This document shows positions 13,727 to 24,000 of a stretch of 24,000 nucleotides of DNA, one piece after another. The number at the start of each line of letters is the position of its first letter. The stretch's first letter is position 1. The notes under the pieces were generated by a model, which saw nothing but the letters and a program-made list of their open reading frames with translations, had not been told where the DNA came from and searched no databases. Position numbers and translations under genes: made by a program. Origin of the DNA: Sulfurifustis variabilis (lineage in GTDB: Bacteria; Pseudomonadota; Gammaproteobacteria; Acidiferrobacterales; Sulfurifustaceae); the NCBI RefSeq assembly GCF_002355415.1, contig NZ_AP014936.1, forward strand, positions 3,317,126-3,341,125, given 5' to 3'.

Positions 13727-13909
13727 TCAGCGGAAGCGCCGCGCACGGCGATGGTGTTCCTGGTGATCGGCGCGGCCGCGGGCAGCGGCCGTGTTACGCG
13801 CCGGCAAGTCGGCCGACAGGCCCTGGCGAGCGCGGCCTGCCACGAAATCAGCAAGCGCGGTGGCGCTGATGTACGCCGCGTCCGGCCTGGGTGGCTGACG
13901 CGTCTTCAT
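13727..13909 (-). CDS. small hypothetical protein (60 aa), translationally coupled
   Basis: The internal ATG of ORF 13727..13975 overlaps the DUF1173 stop as ATGA, with a GGAGGG RBS inside the upstream gene. It reads MKTRQPPRPDAAYISATALADFVAGRARQG... and ends 6 nt before the nuclease ATG. Confidence 0.35.
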   Translation of the reverse strand: MKTRQPPRPDAAYISATALADFVAGRARQGLSADLPARNTAAARGRADHQEHHRRARRFR

Positions 13910-15180
13910 GTGACCCTCCCCTGCGCCGGCGGCAGCGGGGGCGGCTGCGGCGTTGCCTGCGGATCCCACCACCACAGCGCTTGCCCGAGTTGCTCGTAGC
14001 GCGCCTGCTTCTGCCGCCAGCGCTCGGCATAGACTGCGTGATTCATCATGCCGAGGACCTCGAGGTGCATGCGGTCCGCACGATCCTCCAAGATCACGTC
14101 CGGCAACAGTCTGTCACCCTGCTCCTCGATCGCGAGCGGCTTGCGGAACGTGCGCTGGGTGGCCAGGAGCGAGCGCACGAGCTGGCGTTCGTGTCCGGAA
14201 TCGACCGGGATCCAGCTCGAGCCGTCGGATAGAGGCAGCGCCGCAAAATCGCGAACGTCGAGGCGGATTTCCCGCGCCGCATCGGTTCGCTCGACGCGGG
14301 CGATAAAGGCGATCGGGTGCTCGGGGGTGAACGCGTCCTGCGGGGCCATGTCGAGCCAGACGTCGGCGTACTGCTCCCAGGCCTTGGCGGCGACGTGGAG
14401 CGGCAGCGGAAAGTGGGCGCACTTGAGGATGAAGCTCCCGTCCTGCCGCTCGACGTGTTTCACGATGCCGACGAGGTAGCCGTACCACTGGCGGCCGTTC
14501 TTTGGATTCTGCGTTAGGTTCGAGAGCCACCGGTCTCGCCCGGCACGAAGTTCCTCCTCGCGGTCCGGATGATACGGGGGCGGGACGTAGAGCAGCGGCG
14601 CCAGATCGTGGGCGCGCAGCTGCAGGGTCGCGGCCACCTCGCGCAGGCGATGACTCACGACGCCGTAGTGGCGCTTGCGCGCGAACGCCGGGCGCCAGAT
14701 GTTGAGCTCGGCCTGCGACCAGAGGACCTCGAGCAGCGAGCGCAGCCTACCGCGCGGCGCGGGAGCACGCAGCCGGCCGCTTTTCGGCTCGTCGTCCGTA
14801 TCTCCTGCGCCGGCCGCGGACGACGCCCGGTAGAGCGGTGCGGCGAGATTCAGGTTGATGCGGTCGCCGCGGATCTCGACGACCGGCGGGCCGGCGGCGT
14901 CGCCGGAAGCCTCGGCCTGCTGCTCCACCATGCGATGCGGGCAACCGAGCGCGTGTCGGGCAGGGTCGCTTCGCTGCAGCGGATAGAGGTAGTACGTGTC
15001 GTGCGGCACGCTGCGGTGCCCTACTCCCATCGGGATACCCTCGCTTCGGCATAGACAGAGCACGTCGCCGGCCTTGCCGTGGCTCGGCCCCAAGTAATGC
15101 GCGCGATGCTCGCGCGAGCGCTCGATCTCGCTCAGCGCGATGCGCCGCCTATCGGGCAGTTCGATCAGCGGGGTCGGCAT
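13906..15180 (-). CDS. DUF1173-like protein
   Basis: 424 aa. The N-terminal Cys/His cluster (DVLCLCRSEGIPMGV...HALGCPH) is the pattern I recall for DUF1173. The C-terminal LLPDVILEDRADRMHLEVLGMMNHAVYAERWRQKQARY resembles a Vsr/DUF559-style endonuclease core (PD..n..EV.G). Assignment is from memory of the family and not from a search. Confidence 0.65.
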   Translation of the reverse strand: MPTPLIELPDRRRIALSEIERSREHRAHYLGPSHGKAGDVLCLCRSEGIPMGVGHRSVPHDTYYLYPLQRSDPARHALGCPHRMVEQQAEASGDAAGPPVVEIRGDRINLNLAAPLYRASSAAGAGDTDDEPKSGRLRAPAPRGRLRSLLEVLWSQAELNIWRPAFARKRHYGVVSHRLREVAATLQLRAHDLAPLLYVPPPYHPDREEELRAGRDRWLSNLTQNPKNGRQWYGYLVGIVKHVERQDGSFILKCAHFPLPLHVAAKAWEQYADVWLDMAPQDAFTPEHPIAFIARVERTDAAREIRLDVRDFAALPLSDGSSWIPVDSGHERQLVRSLLATQRTFRKPLAIEEQGDRLLPDVILEDRADRMHLEVLGMMNHAVYAERWRQKQARYEQLGQALWWWDPQATPQPPPLPPAQGRVT

Positions 15181-15779: not shown

Positions 15780-16889
15780 TTATCCTATTTCCTTGCTAAA
15801 GCTCTCGCCGAGATCGCCTCCCGCGACGCCCGCCGGCGCCTCAACCGGCGACGACGTAACGTCCGTCGTCTCCGCGGCTGACGGCGTGCTTCGGCTCGGT
15901 TTGCGGCTTCTCAGCAGCGGTCCGAGATAGGCGCTCGCAATCTGCGGGCGCGAATGCCCGAGATGTTCCGCGACGATCTGACGCGCCAGGCGTTCATCGG
16001 CCGGGTCAACGGAGGCCGTGTCGCCGCCGTAGACCGGCGCGTCCACGCCCAGGATGCTCTTGTAGATCGCGTTGGCCTCCTCGTGGCGAAGCCCGTGCGC
16101 CACGATCCCGGTGGTGCGCGCGATGCCGCAGTCGCGGCATACCCGGTAGTAGTGGGTCTTCCAGGCTTTCAGCGACTGCGCGTCAGGAATCAGCGACCCC
16201 GTGGAGGTGTTCGCCCAACGCTTTGCGATATCCAGAATGTGTCGCTGGGCAGGATTCTCGATCGGCACCGTCCGATCCCGACCTCCCTTGGCGCCCCAGT
16301 TGACGGCGAGATGCGTCCCCTGGTCGGCGAGCCTCGGGTGCAGCAGCCAGGCCTCCCGGGCCCGCAGGCCGAACACCCGCTGCAGCGCGAGCTGAAGGGC
16401 CACGAGCTTATCGAGCTTGGCGATCTCGGCGAGCTTTTGTTCGACATCAATACCGAGACCGCTCCAGCCCTTGGGCTTTTGCGCGACGTAGGACCGCTCG
16501 GCAGCGGCCGGATCGGCGAGGTACTGCCCCGCGCGGGCGACCATGCCGTGCTTCCCGACCCAGGTCGCGAAGACCCGAAACACCGAAAACCGCCGCTGGA
16601 TCTCGGCAGCCGAGAGTCTCTGCTCCTCCCAGTGGCGCGCCAACACCTGCATGTGGCGGTTTCCGAAACCGGCCGGGTCGCGCAGCTTGTAGCCGAGCTC
16701 GTGTAATGCGAGGAATCCCTGCCTGAGGATCTGCCCGCGGGCCGTTGCCGTGGCGTCGCTGCAGCGCTTCGCGAAGCGACCGTGGCGGTGGTTGTGCTCG
16801 CGCAAGAGTTGAGTGAGCCGATACAGCAGCTCGCTCTTCGCCGAGCGGCGGCTACCGCGGCTCGGGTTCTTCGTGTTCGTCGTTGGCAT
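15780..16889 (-). CDS. tyrosine recombinase, Integrase_1-like (second recombinase of the element)
   Basis: ORF 15780..16985. The start is chosen at ATG 16889 (GGAGGA 6 nt upstream, MPTTNTKNPSRG...). Candidate catalytic residues are GLRAREAWLL (Arg), AHGLRHEEA (H-x-x-R) and HLGHSRPQIASAYLG (His...Tyr). Confidence 0.75.
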   Translation of the reverse strand: MPTTNTKNPSRGSRRSAKSELLYRLTQLLREHNHRHGRFAKRCSDATATARGQILRQGFLALHELGYKLRDPAGFGNRHMQVLARHWEEQRLSAAEIQRRFSVFRVFATWVGKHGMVARAGQYLADPAAAERSYVAQKPKGWSGLGIDVEQKLAEIAKLDKLVALQLALQRVFGLRAREAWLLHPRLADQGTHLAVNWGAKGGRDRTVPIENPAQRHILDIAKRWANTSTGSLIPDAQSLKAWKTHYYRVCRDCGIARTTGIVAHGLRHEEANAIYKSILGVDAPVYGGDTASVDPADERLARQIVAEHLGHSRPQIASAYLGPLLRSRKPSRSTPSAAETTDVTSSPVEAPAGVAGGDLGESFSKEIG

Positions 16890-18568
16890 AGCGTCCTCCG
16901 AATCTGTGGTTGATGGGTTGAATCGTTTAAGGAGCGACAGCGCCGGCTCGTGCCCGGGCCCCGCCAGCAATGGGGCAATGGCCATTTCGTTAGAGAGTGA
17001 TGAGCAGCGAGCGCGCCCGTTTCCGGGACGCGTGCGCGGGGGCTTGCGACCTGCTGCGCAAGCGGCGGGCTCAAAGAACGATCACCGTGAGTTCATCGAC
17101 GACGAAGACACCGATGGGCTTCCTGCCGGCCAACAGCAGGCTGGGTGGCTGCGCAACTTCCCGGGGCACGTGGCGTCGCGTATGGACGCCATATTCCCCG
17201 AGCGGCCTTGCGGCCGTGTACTGGGCGCCGCTTCGTCGGATCGATTGCATGCGAAGCCGACGCAACATCGGCTTCGGCACCGTATGCCGTCGTCCTGCGA
17301 CACGGTGCTTGGACGTGATCGTTACTACGCGATCACGTTTCGGGCGGGGGGGACGACCTGTTGGGGACCTTCGCGCGGAGACGGCGCGAATCGCGCTGGC
17401 GGTGAGGCTTGCCTGGCGCAGTGCCCTGATGGCGCATGCAAACAGCGAAAGCGCCTGCGAGCTACGACACGGGGGGACTCAACACTCTCGGGTAAGCACT
17501 TGGGGCGAGCATTCGCCCTTGTGCTATCGGCGCTGCTTTTCCTGTTCGGACGCTGCAGCTCGCGCGCCTCGGTCGAGGCTTGGGGGAAAACGCGCGCATT
17601 CTGAACTGATCACACACGCGCGGTCAAGCGCGTCTTCGCGCGCTTGTCGGGTGTGGAACTATTTGTCTGCGGTCGATGCGGGTGCCGCCGGCCCTGATCG
17701 GCATCGCCAAGTGCCGATGCACAAGGACGATTCTTGGACGCGCTCGACCCCTCTGTGTTCCGGGAACCGAGGCACGTGGAGATTGATCGCGAGACACGCC
17801 GCGACCGCGGGCTCCGGCACGCTGCCCTGCGACACGGTGCGGCATCGCGGAGAGCGACCGATCGCCGTCGATCACACCGGCAACCGATTGAGCCGCGCTC
17901 CATCGCCGTCACCATCAAACACGTCGCTTGCGACGTGCATCGCCCGTCACGAGCCCGATCGCGTCGTCTGCGACGTTTCTGCGACGCGCACCGGCGATAG
18001 ATGCGTGATCTGGTGATCTATCCCCTCTTGCCTCGCGATGAGTCTTCTGGCACAAATGCCGCCACGGGATTCGAGCGAGTCGAACCCGATAGTCGTCGGC
18101 GGCATGCGGCGACTGCGTGACCCGAGACCGCATGCGACACGCTCCACCCGATCGCTGGTCTCAACGAGGTGATCGATCGTTCGGCTTCTCAGGCCAAACG
18201 ATCGAGCGGCAACGAAAGCAAGGCACCGCTAGTGCCGACGCCCCGTTGCCGTAGCTTTTGTGATAGTAGCTGGCGCAAGACCCCGCAGTTTCTGCTAGGT
18301 CAATGAGGTCGGATAGCGTGCTCTTTGGCGTTCGCTGATCCGGCTTGAAACGAGACCTGCCGCGCGGCATGCGGCAACAGTCAAGCGGGTGCGGCATCGG
18401 GCTAATCAATCAGCCCTCGCTGCCAGCCCGCTTCTCTCCATGTTCCCTGTTCGTGATTTTGCGGCGTGCTGCGTGTGCGCCGCGCGGATGACGCACGCCC
18501 GCTCGCGCCGGTTTTTCACGCGCGCCGTTCACCCTGATTTCAACCGAATTCCTTAAAGGAGCTACTGC

Positions 18569-19579
18569 ATGCACACCACCATTCGAGCAATCGATGTTGG
18601 CTACGGAAACACCAAGTACACGCTGTCCCACAGCCGCCAGGGGGAGATCCCTTGCGGCGTCTTCGCGTCCATCGTCGCCCCGGCGGTGGCGGGCGATCTC
18701 TCGGACGGGGCGCTCGCGCGGCGCAACACCGCCGTCGTCCACGTGAACGGCTGCGACTACGAGGTCGGCCCGGATGCCGAGCTCGTGACTGGCGCGCACG
18801 CCGCGCGCGTGCTCCACGGCGAGTTCCTCGGCACGCGCGAGTATCTCGCGCTGCTGCGCGGGGCGCTCTGCTACATGGAGGTCGCGAGCATCGATCTCCT
18901 CGTGGTCGGCCTCCCGGTGTCCTACCTCGCGGACAAGGCGGCGGCGCTGCGCGCCCTGGCCGAAGGGACGCACGTGCTGTCGGTGAAGCATTCCGTGCAC
19001 GTGGCCAAGGCGCTCGTGCTCGCCCAGCCGCTCGGCGGCCTCGCCTACCACGCCATGACCCGCGGCCTCTACGGCCGGTTCCTCCAGACCCGCAACCTCA
19101 TCGTCGATCCCGGCTACTACACCGTCGACTGGCTGACCACGAAGGGCCTGCAGCCGCTGCCCAAGCGCTGCGGGAGCTTCGCCGGGGGTGTGCACGCGGT
19201 CGCTCGGGCCGTTGCGCGCGCGGTAGCGAGCGAGGAGCGGATTTCCCCTGATGAGCTGCCGGCGCTCGATGCCGCCGTGCGCGACGGCTACCTCACGCTC
19301 TTCGGCCGGCGTACGCCTCTGCAACCGCGGCATCTCGAGGCGGCCCGCGGCGTCACCGAGGAGGCGGCGCACGCGATTGCGAACTCGGTCGGGGCCGGAC
19401 GCGACATCGAGGCGATCCTGCTCGTCGGCGGCGGTGCGGATCTCTACCGCGAGGCGCTCGCCCGGCGGTATCCGAAGCACGCGGTCCAGATCGTACCGGA
19501 GCCGGTGCTCGCGAATGTCCGCGGCTTCCAGCTCATCGGCGAGGAGGTCGCGCGCCGGCGCCAAGCGGCCACGGCATGA
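18569..19579 (+). CDS. ParM/StbA-family actin-like segregation ATPase
   Basis: 336 aa with an AAGGAG RBS. Actin-fold motifs appear in order: IRAIDVGYGNTKY (phosphate 1), LLVVGLPVSY, VLAQPLGG, NLIVDPGYYTVDW (phosphate 2), ILLVGGGADLY (adenosine) and a C-terminal VRGFQLIG. Confidence 0.85.
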   Translation: MHTTIRAIDVGYGNTKYTLSHSRQGEIPCGVFASIVAPAVAGDLSDGALARRNTAVVHVNGCDYEVGPDAELVTGAHAARVLHGEFLGTREYLALLRGALCYMEVASIDLLVVGLPVSYLADKAAALRALAEGTHVLSVKHSVHVAKALVLAQPLGGLAYHAMTRGLYGRFLQTRNLIVDPGYYTVDWLTTKGLQPLPKRCGSFAGGVHAVARAVARAVASEERISPDELPALDAAVRDGYLTLFGRRTPLQPRHLEAARGVTEEAAHAIANSVGAGRDIEAILLVGGGADLYREALARRYPKHAVQIVPEPVLANVRGFQLIGEEVARRRQAATA

Positions 19580-19839
19580 AGCGGCTTCGCATCAACCTGC
19601 ACATCCGTGACGACGTCTCGCCGAGGCTCTACGAGGCCCTGGCCAGTCTGCCGCCGCGCCCGCGCGCCGAGCTCCTGCGGCGGCTCGCCGAGCTCGGCCT
19701 GCGGCCGGCCGCCCCAACCGTGCCGCAGCTTGACCGAGATGAGGCAACCGCCGTGGCCGCTATGACAGAAGCCAGCGATCCGCGGGACCGGGATGCGTTC
19801 GGCGATGAGCTGGTGCGCATCGTGAGCGGCCTGCCGTAA
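19576..19839 (+). CDS. small ribbon-helix-helix-like protein, candidate ParR-type adaptor
   Basis: 87 aa. The start overlaps the parM-like stop (ATGA). The N-terminus KRLRINLHIRDDVSPRLYEALASLPPRPRAELLRRLAELGL fits a beta-strand/helix/helix (RHH) pattern. The position matches parR in parMR loci. Confidence 0.5.
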   Translation: MKRLRINLHIRDDVSPRLYEALASLPPRPRAELLRRLAELGLRPAAPTVPQLDRDEATAVAAMTEASDPRDRDAFGDELVRIVSGLP

Positions 19840-19861: not shown

Positions 19862-20275
19862 ATGCTCAAACACGCCAATCCTGACCCGAACCAGGTCGCC
19901 ACGTCCCTGGGGAAGTCCACGCCGCGCTCGTCCGAGAAAGACGGGAGAAGCGAGACGCTGCTGACACTGGAACAGGCAGCCCGGTTCCTCCGGATGAACC
20001 CGGAATCCCTGCGCCGCAAAGCAAAGGCCGGAGAGGTTCCGGGCGCCAAGATCGGACGATCCTGGCTCTTCTACGAACCTGACCTTGTCGCCAACTTGAG
20101 GTCCTTGTACCCTGCTTCTCGGGCGTTGCAGGGCAAGGAGGAAAATCCATGCTCTGCAAATTCAAGGGCAGTCCGCATTGGTACGTTCGCTTCACGGCGC
20201 CAAATGGACGCCGCATATGCCGAACTACTCGGACTGCCGATCGAAAGCTCGCCCAAGAGTACGAAATCCAGTTGA
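19862..20275 (+). CDS. excisionase-family HTH DNA-binding protein (Xis/AlpA-like)
   Basis: 137-aa ORF. The HTH_17-type core is LLTLEQAARFLRMNPESLRRKAKAGEVPGAKIGRSWLFYEPDLVANL. The RBS at 19862 is poor, so the start is uncertain. The tail overlaps the integrase gene by 127 nt. Confidence 0.6.
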   Translation: MLKHANPDPNQVATSLGKSTPRSSEKDGRSETLLTLEQAARFLRMNPESLRRKAKAGEVPGAKIGRSWLFYEPDLVANLRSLYPASRALQGKEENPCSANSRAVRIGTFASRRQMDAAYAELLGLPIESSPKSTKSS

Positions 20276-21216
20276 AGCAGGAGGTATGGCGGGCCTGCCA
20301 GCTCGGTGAGGAATCGCCGAAACGCTGGGAGGAGGCCGTCATGCCCTGGTCGCAGGCCAAGAAGTCCAAGCCGTCGTGGCGAGACCTGCGTCGGAACCTG
20401 CGGATACTGAATCCGTACCTCGGGGGCAAGCTGTTGAGAGACATCACCGCGGAGGACATAGATAGGATCAAGGCAGACCGAGAGTCAGCGGGGGTAGCGC
20501 CAGCAACAACCAATCGGACGCTCGAAGTGTTGCGTTCGGTATTGCGGATGGCACTCAAGCGTAATTGGCTCAAAGCGCTCCCCCCGATCGAATTCCTCGA
20601 CGAACCCGACGTTCGCATTCGTTGGATCACGCCGGAAGAAGCCGACCGGTTGATTCAGGAACTGGCGAAGTCGAAGCGGACCGCAGCGCTTGCGGAATTG
20701 GTCCGGTTCAGCCTCGCGACGGGACTGCGCGAATCGAACGTCACCGGCCTTGAGTGGTCTAGGGTCGATCTGGAGCGGCGGGTAATGTGGGTGGAAGGCT
20801 ATCAATCGAAGAACGGTTCGGCCTTCAATCTGCCGCTTTCCGCCGAGGCGATCCTGGTGCTACGTCGGCAGCAAGGGAAGCATTCGCGGTGGGTGTTTAC
20901 GTATTACGGAAAGCGAGTAAAACGGGGCAACACGAAGGCGTTCAAAGCGGCTCTGAAGCGCGCAGGGATTTCCAACTTCCGTTGGCACGACCTGCGTCAC
21001 ACCTGGGCCTCTTGGCACGTTCAAAATGGAACGCCGATCCCCGTGCTGCAGCAACTCGGTGGATGGAAGACGCTCGCGATGGTCATGCGGTACGCCCATC
21101 TCGGCGCCAGCCACCTCGCCGAGTTTGCCGACAACGTCCCGAGGCTTCGGGTCGTTGCTGGCAAAAAATTGGCAAAGTCAGAATGCGACTCTACCGAAGA
21201 TGCTGTAAGTGCTTGA
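20149..21216 (+). CDS. tyrosine-type site-specific integrase
   Basis: 355 aa with AAGGAGGA 7 nt upstream. The N-terminal arm-binding pattern is KGSPHWYVRFTAPNGRRICRTTRTADRKLAQEYE. Catalytic residues are TGLRESNVTGLEW (Arg), WHDLRHTWASW (H-x-x-R) and GGWKTLAMVMRYAHL (Tyr). The stop lies 4 nt from a tRNA-Lys 3' fragment. Confidence 0.9.
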   Translation: MLCKFKGSPHWYVRFTAPNGRRICRTTRTADRKLAQEYEIQLKQEVWRACQLGEESPKRWEEAVMPWSQAKKSKPSWRDLRRNLRILNPYLGGKLLRDITAEDIDRIKADRESAGVAPATTNRTLEVLRSVLRMALKRNWLKALPPIEFLDEPDVRIRWITPEEADRLIQELAKSKRTAALAELVRFSLATGLRESNVTGLEWSRVDLERRVMWVEGYQSKNGSAFNLPLSAEAILVLRRQQGKHSRWVFTYYGKRVKRGNTKAFKAALKRAGISNFRWHDLRHTWASWHVQNGTPIPVLQQLGGWKTLAMVMRYAHLGASHLAEFADNVPRLRVVAGKKLAKSECDSTEDAVSA

Positions 21217-21220
21217 TAAC

Positions 21221-21266
21221 TGGTGGGCCGTGCAGGAGTCGAACCTGCGACCAACTGGTTAAAAGG
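21221..21266 (-). other. 3' 46 nt of tRNA-Lys(UUU), from anticodon loop to CCA; att-site core, not an intact tRNA
   Basis: Minus strand: CTTTTAA-CCAGT-TGGTC-GCAGG-TTCGACT-CCTGC-ACGGCCC-A-CCA. This gives the anticodon loop (UUU), 3' anticodon stem, variable loop, complete T arm, 3' acceptor strand, discriminator and CCA. The 5' anticodon-stem partner (ACTGG expected, CACGC found), the D arm and the 5' acceptor strand (GGGCCGT) are absent. Confidence 0.8.
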
Positions 21267-21573
21267 CGTGAGCTGTTTTTGTGGGCGTAGTCAATTCAAC
21301 CACTTACGGAGCGCCCGTTGCACACAAAAGCAGCAAAACGTCCATTTGGGCCCACTGAAGTGTCACAAAAGTGCCACACGAAAATTTTTTTCGAGCGTCA
21401 CTTACGCAAGGATTCGCTCGCACGGCGAAATGATACGCTGCGCGACGCAAGGTGGTCACCCAACATGCTCTCCAGATCCTGGATCTGTCATGCGCGTTCT
21501 CGGTGCCCTTCCTCCTCTTTTCGGCGCCGCGCCTCTTTCTCCAATCTCTCCTTTTCGATTTCACGCGACCGAG

Positions 21574-22992
21574 TTACATGAAGAACCGAAACTGATACGG
21601 CGCGCTCCCCAAACCGTGCATGCGCTTAACCACTCGCGCGAGTACCTTCGCGTACCCAATGGTTACGGGTAGCGGGTCATACAAAGCATCGTTGTTCCAG
21701 TCCATTTTCGAAAGCGCGAGTATGGCGCGCGCGGTCTCGTCCCAAGGCCCGTGGCCGGCGTGCCGTACCAAGCGCACCGGTACGGGTGTACCTCGAGCAC
21801 CCTGAAAGTATTGCCGATCGCTAATGCCACGTACGTCACCATGGGTCCACAGCAACGCTTCTCGCGGACCGAGACCCATCAGCGTACCGCGCGAAACCGG
21901 AAAGGCTGCGGGCTTTCCCTTCTTCGCGCCATCATCACCGTCGATCCGAATTCCGCGCCAACCAACGTCTTCAACGATCTGCAAGAGATCGACTGCCTCG
22001 CACAGATGAAGGGCTTCCATGCAACCATCGATCTCGTCCGGCTTAAATTCGGTTGTCTTATGGACCATCACACGGCGCGGCGAGCGACCAGCATGACGGC
22101 GACGGTATAGTTCCAACGAACGTGTCATCACGCGGAACATCTCGGTACGTGAGAGGAATGGATTGTCGCGTTGGACCTCCACTTCGTGGGCATCATAGGC
22201 AACAAACTCCAAGCCCGAGCCTTCAGCGTCAAAAACCTGGCTGCAGCAGGTAACAAAGCGAGGCCGGTCCGATTCGACCGGGCGCACGGCGTAGGAAATT
22301 CCGATGTAAGCAGTTTCAGGGTCCATCTCAGCCAGCTTCCAGGGCACACCACCGGCCTTGGCATAAAGCGCTAACCCAATGCGCCACATCACACTAGCTC
22401 GATCTGGATAGGCGAGCGCCTTGTCCTCGCGTACCAACTGGACAGGGAGTCGACGGGTGGCTGTTGCGGCTTTTAGGTGATCATGCAGATCAAAATCTTC
22501 GCCTGACGCCCCGACGTAGCCAGCTGCCCAGCGTTGAGGGATGTAAATAAACAGCACATCAAAATCATTGCGTTGGGTGTCGAGGCGCTGAATGGCGCGC
22601 ACCAGCCGCTCGGCCAACACAATGTGCGGTGTTGATGAATCGCAGAATTCAGCCTCAAGTTCTTTGTCGAGCTCAACGTGGCAGCTACCACCGGCGGCTT
22701 TCATATGAAGACCGAAAACGCGCTGAAAACCGGGCCACTCCGGCAGATAGTCTCTGCGCTCGCTGGGTTTGGCTGGCGCGTTGAGCTGCTTCAAGAAATC
22801 GTAAAGGCGGTGGCTCTCACCCTCAGGTGCCAACGTGGCGACGCGGATAGGATCCGGCACCAAGCCGCTGGAGTGCGGACCGAATCGCAGCAGGCCCCGC
22901 AGCGGGTGAATGTCCTGGTCAGATGCGCGATCAGGATGGAAGGCCAGTTTTGGTTCAGGCAACCAAACATGAGGAAAAATCTCGCTGCTCAT
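21574..22992 (-). CDS. short prokaryotic Argonaute (MID-PIWI only, catalytically inactive)
   Basis: 472 aa with a GGAGGG RBS. MID 5'-end pocket candidates are H-x3-K (DLHDHLK), Q (PVQLV) and K (LYAKAGGVPWKL), with spacing close to the canonical Y/H-K-Q-K. The PIWI motif is AYIGISYAV, where active Agos have G-x-D-V, so the first catalytic Asp is replaced by Ser. The C-terminus is YQFRFFM. The size fits short pAgos, which lack N and PAZ domains. Confidence 0.9.
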   Translation of the reverse strand: MSSEIFPHVWLPEPKLAFHPDRASDQDIHPLRGLLRFGPHSSGLVPDPIRVATLAPEGESHRLYDFLKQLNAPAKPSERRDYLPEWPGFQRVFGLHMKAAGGSCHVELDKELEAEFCDSSTPHIVLAERLVRAIQRLDTQRNDFDVLFIYIPQRWAAGYVGASGEDFDLHDHLKAATATRRLPVQLVREDKALAYPDRASVMWRIGLALYAKAGGVPWKLAEMDPETAYIGISYAVRPVESDRPRFVTCCSQVFDAEGSGLEFVAYDAHEVEVQRDNPFLSRTEMFRVMTRSLELYRRRHAGRSPRRVMVHKTTEFKPDEIDGCMEALHLCEAVDLLQIVEDVGWRGIRIDGDDGAKKGKPAAFPVSRGTLMGLGPREALLWTHGDVRGISDRQYFQGARGTPVPVRLVRHAGHGPWDETARAILALSKMDWNNDALYDPLPVTIGYAKVLARVVKRMHGLGSAPYQFRFFM

Positions 22993-24000
22993 GCCCCAGC
23001 CCTCCTCGAAAAGGCGGTAATCCCAGAGATAGAAAAAACGGCATCGACACCATCACCGATTTCCAGCGCGCGCAGATCGCTGCCGGCAAGTAGTTCAGCC
23101 CAAAAATCGACGAAATCGTTGAGTTGCCGGTTATAGCGCTTAACCGTCCTTTCACGAGAAAAATCTGCGGCAGCCGCCTTATTGGCATCGGTGATGCCAT
23201 CGAAGACTGTCCGCGGTTCGATCAACAACCACAGGCGGTCATCGGCCCAGTCGAGCCGAATTCCAACACCTTCACGCCAACGTAATCCGGAACCACCTGC
23301 GACCGCACCACTGAGCGAGCCGGCCAGACGTTTCAGTGGCGCCCATGTGCTGTCCGCTGGATCAGTTGGTGCTAGCAGATCCGTGCTTCGCCGGCGAACG
23401 ACGTCAAGACACCGATGGCGCTGGATCGCCCGAGTCAGTGCATCGCGCAAGAGACCGCGTTCGCCAGAATCATAGCGAAGCCGTTTTGTCTCGATGGTAT
23501 GCAAGTCAAATTCCGTGATGCCGTATGGCTCGAAAGCCTTACGCACATCAGCGTCCCTACCATATGCCAATACTCCGGCCCGAGTGCGAGCAATCAATAC
23601 GTCCACACCGGCCTTTTGAGCTGCATCGCGCGCTTCACCAAAGCCGCCGATCTGGCACACTACACGCCGGCACACGTTGGGCGTACGGACTACCGGTAAC
23701 GCATTGAGGCGCACTACTGGCCAACCACGACTTCCGTTTGGACGCGGAGCGTCGCTCCAGCGCCGACGCTCCGTAGCGAAAGCATCAAGCACGGTCGTGT
23801 CGATACCCTTCACCAGACGGATGAGATCTCGCATTACCTCGTCGAAGTTTTCCACACGCACTAGCCCAGCTTCCACTCCCGCCGCCTTGGCGCTCAACAG
23901 TAACTGCTGAACGCGGGGGAGCGGCGGTTCTTCGCCTCGATGCAGCCAAAAGAGCCCCAACTGGAACGCGTCGCTGTGCTTTAGTGCCTCCTCGAGCGCG
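22989..24000 (-). CDS. APAZ-domain partner of the short pAgo; the N-terminal effector domain (probably SIR2) is outside the window
   Basis: The reading frame is open from the window edge: ...ALEEALKHSDAFQLGLFWLHRGEEPP.... The ORF-track 'M' at 23960 is an internal TTG. The stop overlaps the pAgo ATG as ATGA. About 337 aa are visible. The first 60 or so (FWLHRGEEPP..LLLSAKAAGVEAGLVRVENFDEVMRDLIRL) resemble the tail of SIR2_2-type domains. The remainder has the size and position of APAZ. Confidence 0.8.
   Translation of the reverse strand, partial: ALEEALKHSDAFQLGLFWLHRGEEPPLPRVQQLLLSAKAAGVEAGLVRVENFDEVMRDLIRLVKGIDTTVLDAFATERRRWSDAPRPNGSRGWPVVRLNALPVVRTPNVCRRVVCQIGGFGEARDAAQKAGVDVLIARTRAGVLAYGRDADVRKAFEPYGITEFDLHTIETKRLRYDSGERGLLRDALTRAIQRHRCLDVVRRRSTDLLAPTDPADSTWAPLKRLAGSLSGAVAGGSGLRWREGVGIRLDWADDRLWLLIEPRTVFDGITDANKAAAADFSRERTVKRYNRQLNDFVDFWAELLAGSDLRALEIGDGVDAVFSISGITAFSRRAGA

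Follow-up and report, generated by a model that had tools for sequence, protein, structure and literature searches.

Results

Half a tRNA-Lys gene lies between an integrase gene and a pAgo gene

The stretch of DNA analysed here, called the window throughout, is 24,000 nucleotides long and comprises bases 3317126-3341125 of the single 3,958,814-bp contig of Sulfurifustis variabilis; the published genome of strain skN76T is likewise given as 3,958,814 bp, with a guanine-cytosine (GC) content of 67.46% (PMC5024460). Towards the right of the window there is a gene for a tyrosine integrase, whose stop codon (TGA, 21214-21216) is followed, after a spacer of 4 nt (TAAC), by the 3' half of a tRNA-Lys(UUU) gene on the opposite strand. 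Beyond this half gene lie a short prokaryotic Argonaute (pAgo) gene and its upstream partner gene. The coordinates of these and all other features are collected in Table 1.

On the minus strand the fragment opens with the anticodon loop (CTTTTAA), continues with the 3' side of the anticodon stem, the variable loop and the T-arm, and closes with the 3' side of the acceptor stem and CCA. Compared with positions 32-76 of an intact tRNA-Lys(UUU) it has two mismatches, both in the T-loop, where it reads TTCGACT and the intact tRNA reads TTCAAGT. The 45-mer occurs only once in the window and was matched in none of 100 shuffles. No tRNA gene was found in the window by ARAGORN, and the tRNA match of the fragment in Rfam scored 14.4 bits, below the gathering score of 29; therefore 21221-21265 is a fragment and not a gene. 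The original prediction, a 46-nt 3' fragment on the minus strand lying 4 nt past the integrase stop, was right as to identity, strand and spacing, but the length is 45 nt.

Four copies of the fragment delimit three elements

A search of the whole genome that allowed substitutions found four direct copies of the 45-mer, all in one orientation. These are termed R1 to R4 from left to right; R3 is the copy in the window, and the rightmost, R4, is inside the sole tRNA-Lys(UUU) gene of the genome (3362663-3362738, minus strand). An intact tRNA-Lys to the right of the window, in the same orientation, had been predicted and is thus present at a distance of 24.3 kb; the additional direct repeats that had also been expected are R1 and R2. 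R1, R2 and R4 are the same in sequence, and R3 is unlike them at the two T-loop bases. The base immediately 5' of position 32 differs in every fragment copy (R1, R2 and R3), so that homology to the tRNA ends exactly at the 5' edge of the anticodon loop, confirming the earlier observation that it stops within this loop. R3 and R4 also share the 5 bp ATAAC in front of the core. That these bases might be a meaningful extension of the repeat was considered and dropped as unproven, since in B (see below) they overlap the integrase stop codons, and A differs there.

At the right end of each of the intervals R1-R2, R2-R3 and R3-R4 is an integrase gene, with a tRNA 3' half after it. The intervals are referred to as elements A, B and C; the integrase in the window belongs to B, and the pAgo gene is carried by C. 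The locus thus contains an intact tRNA gene together with displaced 3' fragments in the same orientation, each member having its own integrase and its own fragment, which is the arrangement of a tandem array. To the left of the array are genes for phosphoribulokinase, an HD-domain protein, a CMD-Rieske protein and LigT, of which LigT is nearest to R1. To the right are genes for Sulf_transp, QueC, a radical-SAM protein (QueE by position) and CpoB, and then the tol-pal region.

It is very probable that the half tRNA in the window joins two integrated elements, and that these belong to a tandem array of three at the genome's sole tRNA-Lys(UUU) gene. R3 is a hybrid attachment (att) site, made up of the right junction of B and the left junction of C. 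The two-step island reading that was first proposed for the window therefore stands in so far as there are tandem islands at tRNA-Lys, but the elements number three rather than two. The "Island 1" that it placed on the integrase side is a real element, but one that corresponds to the 264-kb element B, predicted to be conjugative, with a left end far outside the window.

Table 1. Features of the window and of the surrounding array. Coordinates are those of the window unless marked as genome coordinates.
Feature	Coordinates	Strand	Remarks
Element A	R1-R2		31.2 kb; defence cargo
Element B	R2-R3		264.4 kb; predicted conjugative element; owner of the integrase at 20149-21216
Element C	R3-R4		24.3 kb; pAgo carrier
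R1	genome 3042643		45-mer copy, tRNA 3' fragment
R2	genome 3073852		45-mer copy, tRNA 3' fragment
R3	genome 3338346		45-mer copy in window, tRNA 3' fragment
R4	genome 3362663		45-mer copy within intact tRNA-Lys(ttt) gene
PF00589 match left of R2	genome 3073264-3073686	+
PF00589 match left of R3	genome 3337748-3338230	+
PF00589 match left of R4	genome 3362049-3362498	+
DUF1173 protein	13906-15180	-	PF06666, E 4e-43; right-end backbone of B
Integrase_1-type tyrosine recombinase	15780-16985	-	PF12835, E 3e-11; common to A, B and C
339-aa open reading frame	16997-18016	+	no family match above threshold; 16997-17590 shared with A and C
GC-rich, hairpin-rich non-coding stretch, ~290 nt	18280-18568	+	conserved in A, B and C; ends at ribosome-binding site and ATG
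Actin-like partition ATPase (PRTRC system protein D, ParM-like)	18569-19579	+	PF17989 ALP_N, E 2e-22; TIGR03739, 263.5 bits vs cut-off 214.8
87-aa open reading frame after ParM-like gene	19576-19839	+	no family match; same-size gene called at equivalent place in contig L048
Excisionase-like helix-turn-helix protein, 137 aa	19862-20275	+	PF12728 HTH_17, E 1e-9; TIGR01764, E 7e-5, below cut-off
Tyrosine integrase of B, 355 aa	20149-21216	+	PF00589, E 5e-34; convergent with tRNA fragment
Doublet TGGCAAA-N4-TGGCAAA within 22-mer	21158-21179	+	candidate arm-type integrase site, right arm of B; 42 bp before R3
3' half of tRNA-Lys(UUU), tRNA positions 32-76	21221-21265	-	two T-loop bases differ from intact gene
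Left arm of C	21266-21415	+	homologous to left arm of A: 92% identity over 145 bp of first 150 bp
Doublet TGTCACA-N4-TGCCACA	21361-21378	+	candidate arm-type site for A/C-type integrase; left arm of C
Short pAgo gene	21574-22992	-	first cargo gene of C; weak Piwi match
Upstream partner gene of pAgo	22989-24000 (window edge)	-	full open reading frame genome 3340114-3341850, 578 aa

The flanks of the array are adjacent in relatives

Relatives were searched with 4-kb queries from either side of the array, one left of R1 and one right of the tRNA gene. Nine genomes, related at the level of family to order, each had the two flanks on one contig, where 1-3 kb separated them and this interval held one intact tRNA-Lys(UUU). 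Since the outer flanks are adjacent in these nine genomes, the whole block of ~320 kb is an insertion at tRNA-Lys. The original prediction had named an ancestral flank on the pAgo side as the finding that would speak against it; instead, this side is a 24.3-kb element of 60.5% GC that has its own integrase and is missing in the nine relatives. Matches to B in the relatives, unlike those to the flanks, are sparse, scattered and partly multi-copy, and form no collinear block. In one relative (G005, C1:960000-985000) the best matches of several B cargo genes, including those for phosphoketolase and a P-type ATPase, are clustered at 77-79% DNA identity; this exceeds the identity of the core flanks (~70%), and so this genome may carry related accessory DNA at another site.

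A metagenome contig holds the probable junction before entry of C

The metagenome contig L047 encodes an integrase that is 99% identical in protein to that of B. Over its first 1553 bp L047 is 96.8% identical to the right end of B; the match extends to the final base of the 45-mer and takes in the T-loop variant of B. A tRNA 5' half adjoins the 45-mer there, so that L047 has an intact tRNA-Lys(UUU). Beyond the tRNA are genes for Sulf_transp, QueC, QueE, CpoB, Pal, TolB, TolA, TolR, TolQ, YbgC and RuvB, with 76-81% DNA identity to the chromosome studied here. L047 would show the state before the entry of C, in another host. As the element end is ~97% identical and the chromosomal genes only 76-81%, a B-type element has moved between species, with the 45-mer travelling on the integrase side. 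Furthermore, the presence of B's T-loop variant inside the intact tRNA of L047 places the strand exchange 5' of the T-loop, between tRNA positions 32 and 56, in the anticodon stem-loop region, which agrees with the crossover site suggested at the outset.

A second contig, with an integrase 77% identical to that of B, has the same arrangement as L047. Integrases of the C type were also found at this tRNA. In a contig from the same sample as L047, one that is 96% identical lies beside an intact tRNA-Lys and is accompanied by other cargo (ThiF, E2 and JAB-type genes). In L130, a contig of a metagenome-assembled genome, one that is 92% identical is followed by a tRNA-Lys fragment (2590-2634) and then by a different island, with genes for an AEP-TOTE/helicase protein and Fic; L130 is a second tandem at tRNA-Lys in the clade.

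Each integrase type has its own repeat near the element ends

The 22-mer CTGGCAAAAAAWTGGCAAAGTC, which contains the doublet TGGCAAA-N4-TGGCAAA, has exactly two copies in the 3.96-Mb genome when up to three mismatches are allowed. One is just to the left of R3 and the second is at genome 3074001-3074022, 105 bp inside the left end of B; the two ends of B therefore belong together, the 22-mer being found only there. A different doublet, TG[GCT]CACA-N4-TGCCACA, was found with up to two mismatches only in the left arm of A (3042783), the left arm of C and the right arm of C (3362576). These arm repeats would be arm-type sites for the respective integrases.

The integrase of B belongs to a family found next to tRNA genes

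An alignment of the B integrase with its homologues shows R194, K221, H280, R283, W306 and Y315 to be invariant across 21 homologues, and the protein is thus predicted to possess the catalytic residues of a tyrosine recombinase. Loci encoding relatives of this integrase with 43-54% identity were collected (80 in total), of which 73 had enough DNA past the gene to be assessed. A convergent tRNA gene was present within 400 bp of the integrase stop in 62 of the 73, the tRNAs being those for Arg, Lys, Met, Phe, Thr, Asn, His, Pro and Ala. Eight of the 11 loci that had no tRNA gene had a tRNA 3' fragment instead, so that half a tRNA behind the integrase is common in this family.

Element B encodes a predicted conjugation system and metal-resistance cargo

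Pfam scans covered ~55 of the roughly 250 genes of B. Among the transfer genes identified are those for a MOBH relaxase (TraI_2, the only such gene in the genome), a TrwB/TraD coupling protein, TraC (TraC_F_IV), TraN, TraU, TrbC, a TraF-type S26 peptidase, a TrbI-like protein, TraH and a DUF4400 protein, and there are also recombination genes for YqaJ, RecT and SSB. The genome's sole FlhC-family gene (3102140-3102643) is also in the transfer region, beside a gene for an SLT transglycosylase. Relaxase, coupling protein, VirB4-type ATPase, mating-pair proteins and integrase, the set that marks an integrative and conjugative element (ICE), are all encoded within R2-R3, and from this gene content B is predicted to be a conjugative element with an F-type mating-pair system.

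The cargo of B includes at least two resistance-nodulation-division (RND) pumps, two heavy-metal P-type ATPases and two multicopper oxidases, together with a pyridine-nucleotide disulphide oxidoreductase, a phosphoketolase, a transaldolase-transketolase fusion and an isoamylase; at its left end are genes for an AAA_13 ATPase and an AbiEii toxin. B also carries a full-length second SecY gene (3271612-3272928, 389.9 bits), the core copy being at 3388375-3389403. The large subunit of ribonucleotide reductase is divided in B over adjacent open reading frames of 317 and 661 residues (3106481-3109672), which match Ribonuc_red_lgN and both halves of lgC; this gene may have been split or frameshifted, or an intein may interrupt it.

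Elements A and C are related defence islands

The GC content of A and C is 60.4-60.5%, compared with 67.5% for the genome. Their right ends are 87% identical over ~4 kb and their integrases are 85% identical to each other, whereas the integrases of B and C share 28% identity over 217 residues. In both, the integrase gene is accompanied upstream by a small open reading frame that is AlpA-like or unassigned. The cargo of A comprises AbiEi, AbiEii, a DUF1156 methylase with a DUF499 ATPase, a PLD-domain protein, a SNF2-type helicase, a SMODS cyclase with a Cap15-type receptor domain protein, as in a cyclic oligonucleotide-based antiphage signalling system (CBASS), and an 1103-residue protein with weak NOV_C, HATPase and Mrr matches. 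Beside its pAgo pair, C encodes an 1842-residue DEAD-box helicase, a C-5 DNA methylase, an HhH-GPD glycosylase, an AbiEi-like protein and a 1068-residue protein without assigned function. A and C are thus related defence islands. No conjugation domains were seen in the 26 open reading frames of A and C that were scanned; with integrases of their own, the two are candidates for integrative mobilisable elements.

A recombinase and a non-coding stretch are shared by all three elements

The Integrase_1-type protein of B is 70-71% identical to the copies in A and C (77% in DNA), and all three agree at the R, HxxR, H and Y positions. A profile search of the genome contigs with an alignment of these three proteins found no relatives. 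Also common to the three elements is the non-coding stretch of ~290 nt, with a mean column identity of 84% in the alignment of A, B and C; besides 18280-18568 of the window, it lies at ~7960-8256 of contig L005 and ~12150-12446 of contig L003. In B the ParM-like gene follows it; in A and C the ATG at its end lies immediately upstream of the integrase region. It had no match in Rfam, and RNAalifold, with three sequences only, gave four compensatory pairs and a covariation term of -0.08. The stretch could be a leader, an operator region or an origin of transfer (oriT). A k-mer search for an operator common to this stretch and the transfer operons of B was swamped by GC-rich chance matches. The sequence CAACCGAATTCC occurs five times in the genome with up to one mismatch, four of these being within the array.

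The open reading frame of the excisionase-like protein overlaps the start of the B integrase gene by 127 nt in another frame, and no gene is called there in the 94%-identical contig L048.

Discussion

How the array may have been assembled

In the mechanism that we propose, the attP of each element would copy tRNA positions 32-76, and the tyrosine integrase of the element would recombine this attP with the tRNA gene, the strands being exchanged 5' of the T-loop in the anticodon stem-loop region. The 3' half brought in by the element would then complete the tRNA gene, and the previous 3' half would stay at the far (left) end of the element. Repeated entry of this kind would give the order seen here: left flank, R1, A, R2, B, R3, C, R4 within the intact tRNA-Lys, right flank. 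R3 would accordingly be the 3' half that came with the attP of B, having once completed the tRNA gene before being displaced when C entered. The simplest order of entry is A, then B, then C, each into the intact gene. The suggestion made for the window, that the integrase side came first and the pAgo side second, is parsimonious in the same way but unproven, and the same final structure would result if C had been resident and B had entered at its left att site. All three elements may still be able to excise.

Several points weigh against this account. Other orders of entry would fit the data, and the whole array may have entered as one composite. The right arm of A has just one of the two heptamers of the arm repeat. 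The scanned share of B leaves room for nested elements inside it. Further, the right 200 kb of B have a host-like GC content of 66-72%, and B carries housekeeping-like genes (the SecY copy, the transaldolase-transketolase fusion and the phosphoketolase), so that some of its DNA may have been captured or may have been resident for a long time, and need not be recent cargo.

Alternatively, only the ends of B may be mobile: a small island would own the integrase, and most of the 264 kb would be chromosome that was placed between att copies by rearrangement, or captured and fixed. The genome-like composition of the right 200 kb, the metabolic and housekeeping-type proteins encoded there and the 70-79% DNA matches of some B genes in relatives are all consistent with this. 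The adjacency of the outer flanks in the nine relatives means, however, that the entire block was inserted, and the matches to B in those genomes are not collinear. Moreover, the 22-mer arm repeat is present only at the two ends of B, a full set of conjugation genes lies between them, the SecY gene of B is a second copy alongside that of the core, and no other tRNA-Lys fragment was found inside B when up to eight substitutions were allowed. We therefore regard this alternative as improbable.

It is a little less probable still that the Integrase_1-type recombinase shared by the three elements integrates them at tRNA-Lys, the att-adjacent integrases having some other role. This recombinase is the only one that is well conserved over A, B and C (70% protein identity), which would match their shared 45-bp core, while the att-adjacent enzymes are ~28% identical, and its catalytic positions are invariant in all three copies. 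Yet homologues of both att-adjacent integrase types lie tail-to-tail with tRNA genes in many genomes, and their target tRNA shifts as the integrase diverges, as would be expected of the enzyme that determines the site. Each of the two types also has its own repeat motif in both arms.

Fragments of tRNA genes are reportedly common and often mis-annotated, but that the fragment in the window is a decayed tRNA duplicate, a pseudogene placed beside an integrase by chance and no att site, can be rejected almost outright: three fragment copies break at the same base (position 32), an integrase lies to the left of each copy, homologous element DNA follows two of them, and in L047 this 45-mer makes up the 3' half of a working tRNA gene.

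Comparison with known systems

Tandem arrays at tRNA genes of the kind favoured here are a defined category in Islander, every member of an array possessing an integrase and a fragment of its own (Hudson, Lau and Williams 2015, PMC4383910; Williams 2002, cited there). The 2014 table of that resource contains 125 arrays of at least two members and four of at least three, among 3919 islands (PMC4383910). The present array resembles them in its intact tRNA gene with displaced direct 3' fragments, in having a tyrosine integrase for each member and in an attP centred on the anticodon (class A). It does not differ from them in kind; it has three members, one of which is unusually large (264 kb). In the text of the genome paper of Sulfurifustis variabilis the words island, integrase, mobile and conjug are absent (PMC5024460).

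The accretion of ICEs with integrative and mobilisable elements (IMEs) or cis-mobilisable elements (CIMEs) has been reviewed, with ICESt1/ICESt3 in Streptococcus thermophilus and an ICE-IME tandem at tRNA-Lys in S. agalactiae as examples (PMC5704250). As in those cases, conjugative and apparently non-conjugative elements here adjoin one another at a single att site, the internal att site being chimeric, and as in the S. agalactiae pair the integrases are distantly related, with less than 30% identity (PMC5704250). That pair differs in consisting of two streptococcal elements with very different att sites (PMC5704250), whereas the 45-bp core is shared here. The host here is also a different one, a sulfur oxidiser of the Acidiferrobacterales.

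SXT/R391 ICEs and IncA/C plasmids share a gene kit of a MOBH TraI, TraD, a DUF4400 protein, F-type Tra proteins, bet/exo-like genes, SSB and SetC/AcaC. B has the corresponding MOBH TraI, TraD, DUF4400 protein and F-type Tra proteins, RecT and YqaJ with SSB, and an FlhC-like (SetC/AcaC-like) gene. However, SXT/R391 elements integrate into the 5' end of prfC by means of an IntSXT-type integrase, and B sits in tRNA-Lys with a different integrase. B thus has an SXT/R391-like gene kit but is no member of SXT/R391 sensu stricto.

Since A and C share with B the tRNA-Lys core, the Integrase_1-type recombinase (70% protein identity) and the conserved ~290-nt stretch, a possible leader of the excision/integration operon, they might belong to a family of defence-cargo islands that are dedicated satellites of a B-type conjugative element, in which the FlhC-like activator of B would trigger the excision of all three and A and C would travel through the B pore, singly or as a composite. 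We consider this a speculative and rather unlikely proposal. Mobilisable genomic islands (MGIs) and Salmonella genomic island 1 (SGI1) use sites other than those of their helper elements; A and C differ from them in using the same site as B.

Implications for the genome

Tandem accretion at tRNA genes is already textbook knowledge and a well-known route of bacterial genome growth; the array described here is a tidy and fairly large further example, and its biology is ordinary in kind. The T-loop polymorphism makes it a clean natural case that shows on which side of the T-loop the strands are exchanged. For the type strain of Sulfurifustis variabilis, the array accounts for ~320 kb, or 8% of the genome, as three mobile elements at one tRNA gene. 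The extra metal-resistance genes of this strain are thereby placed on transferable DNA, as are several of its phage-defence systems (pAgo, CBASS-type genes and AbiE).

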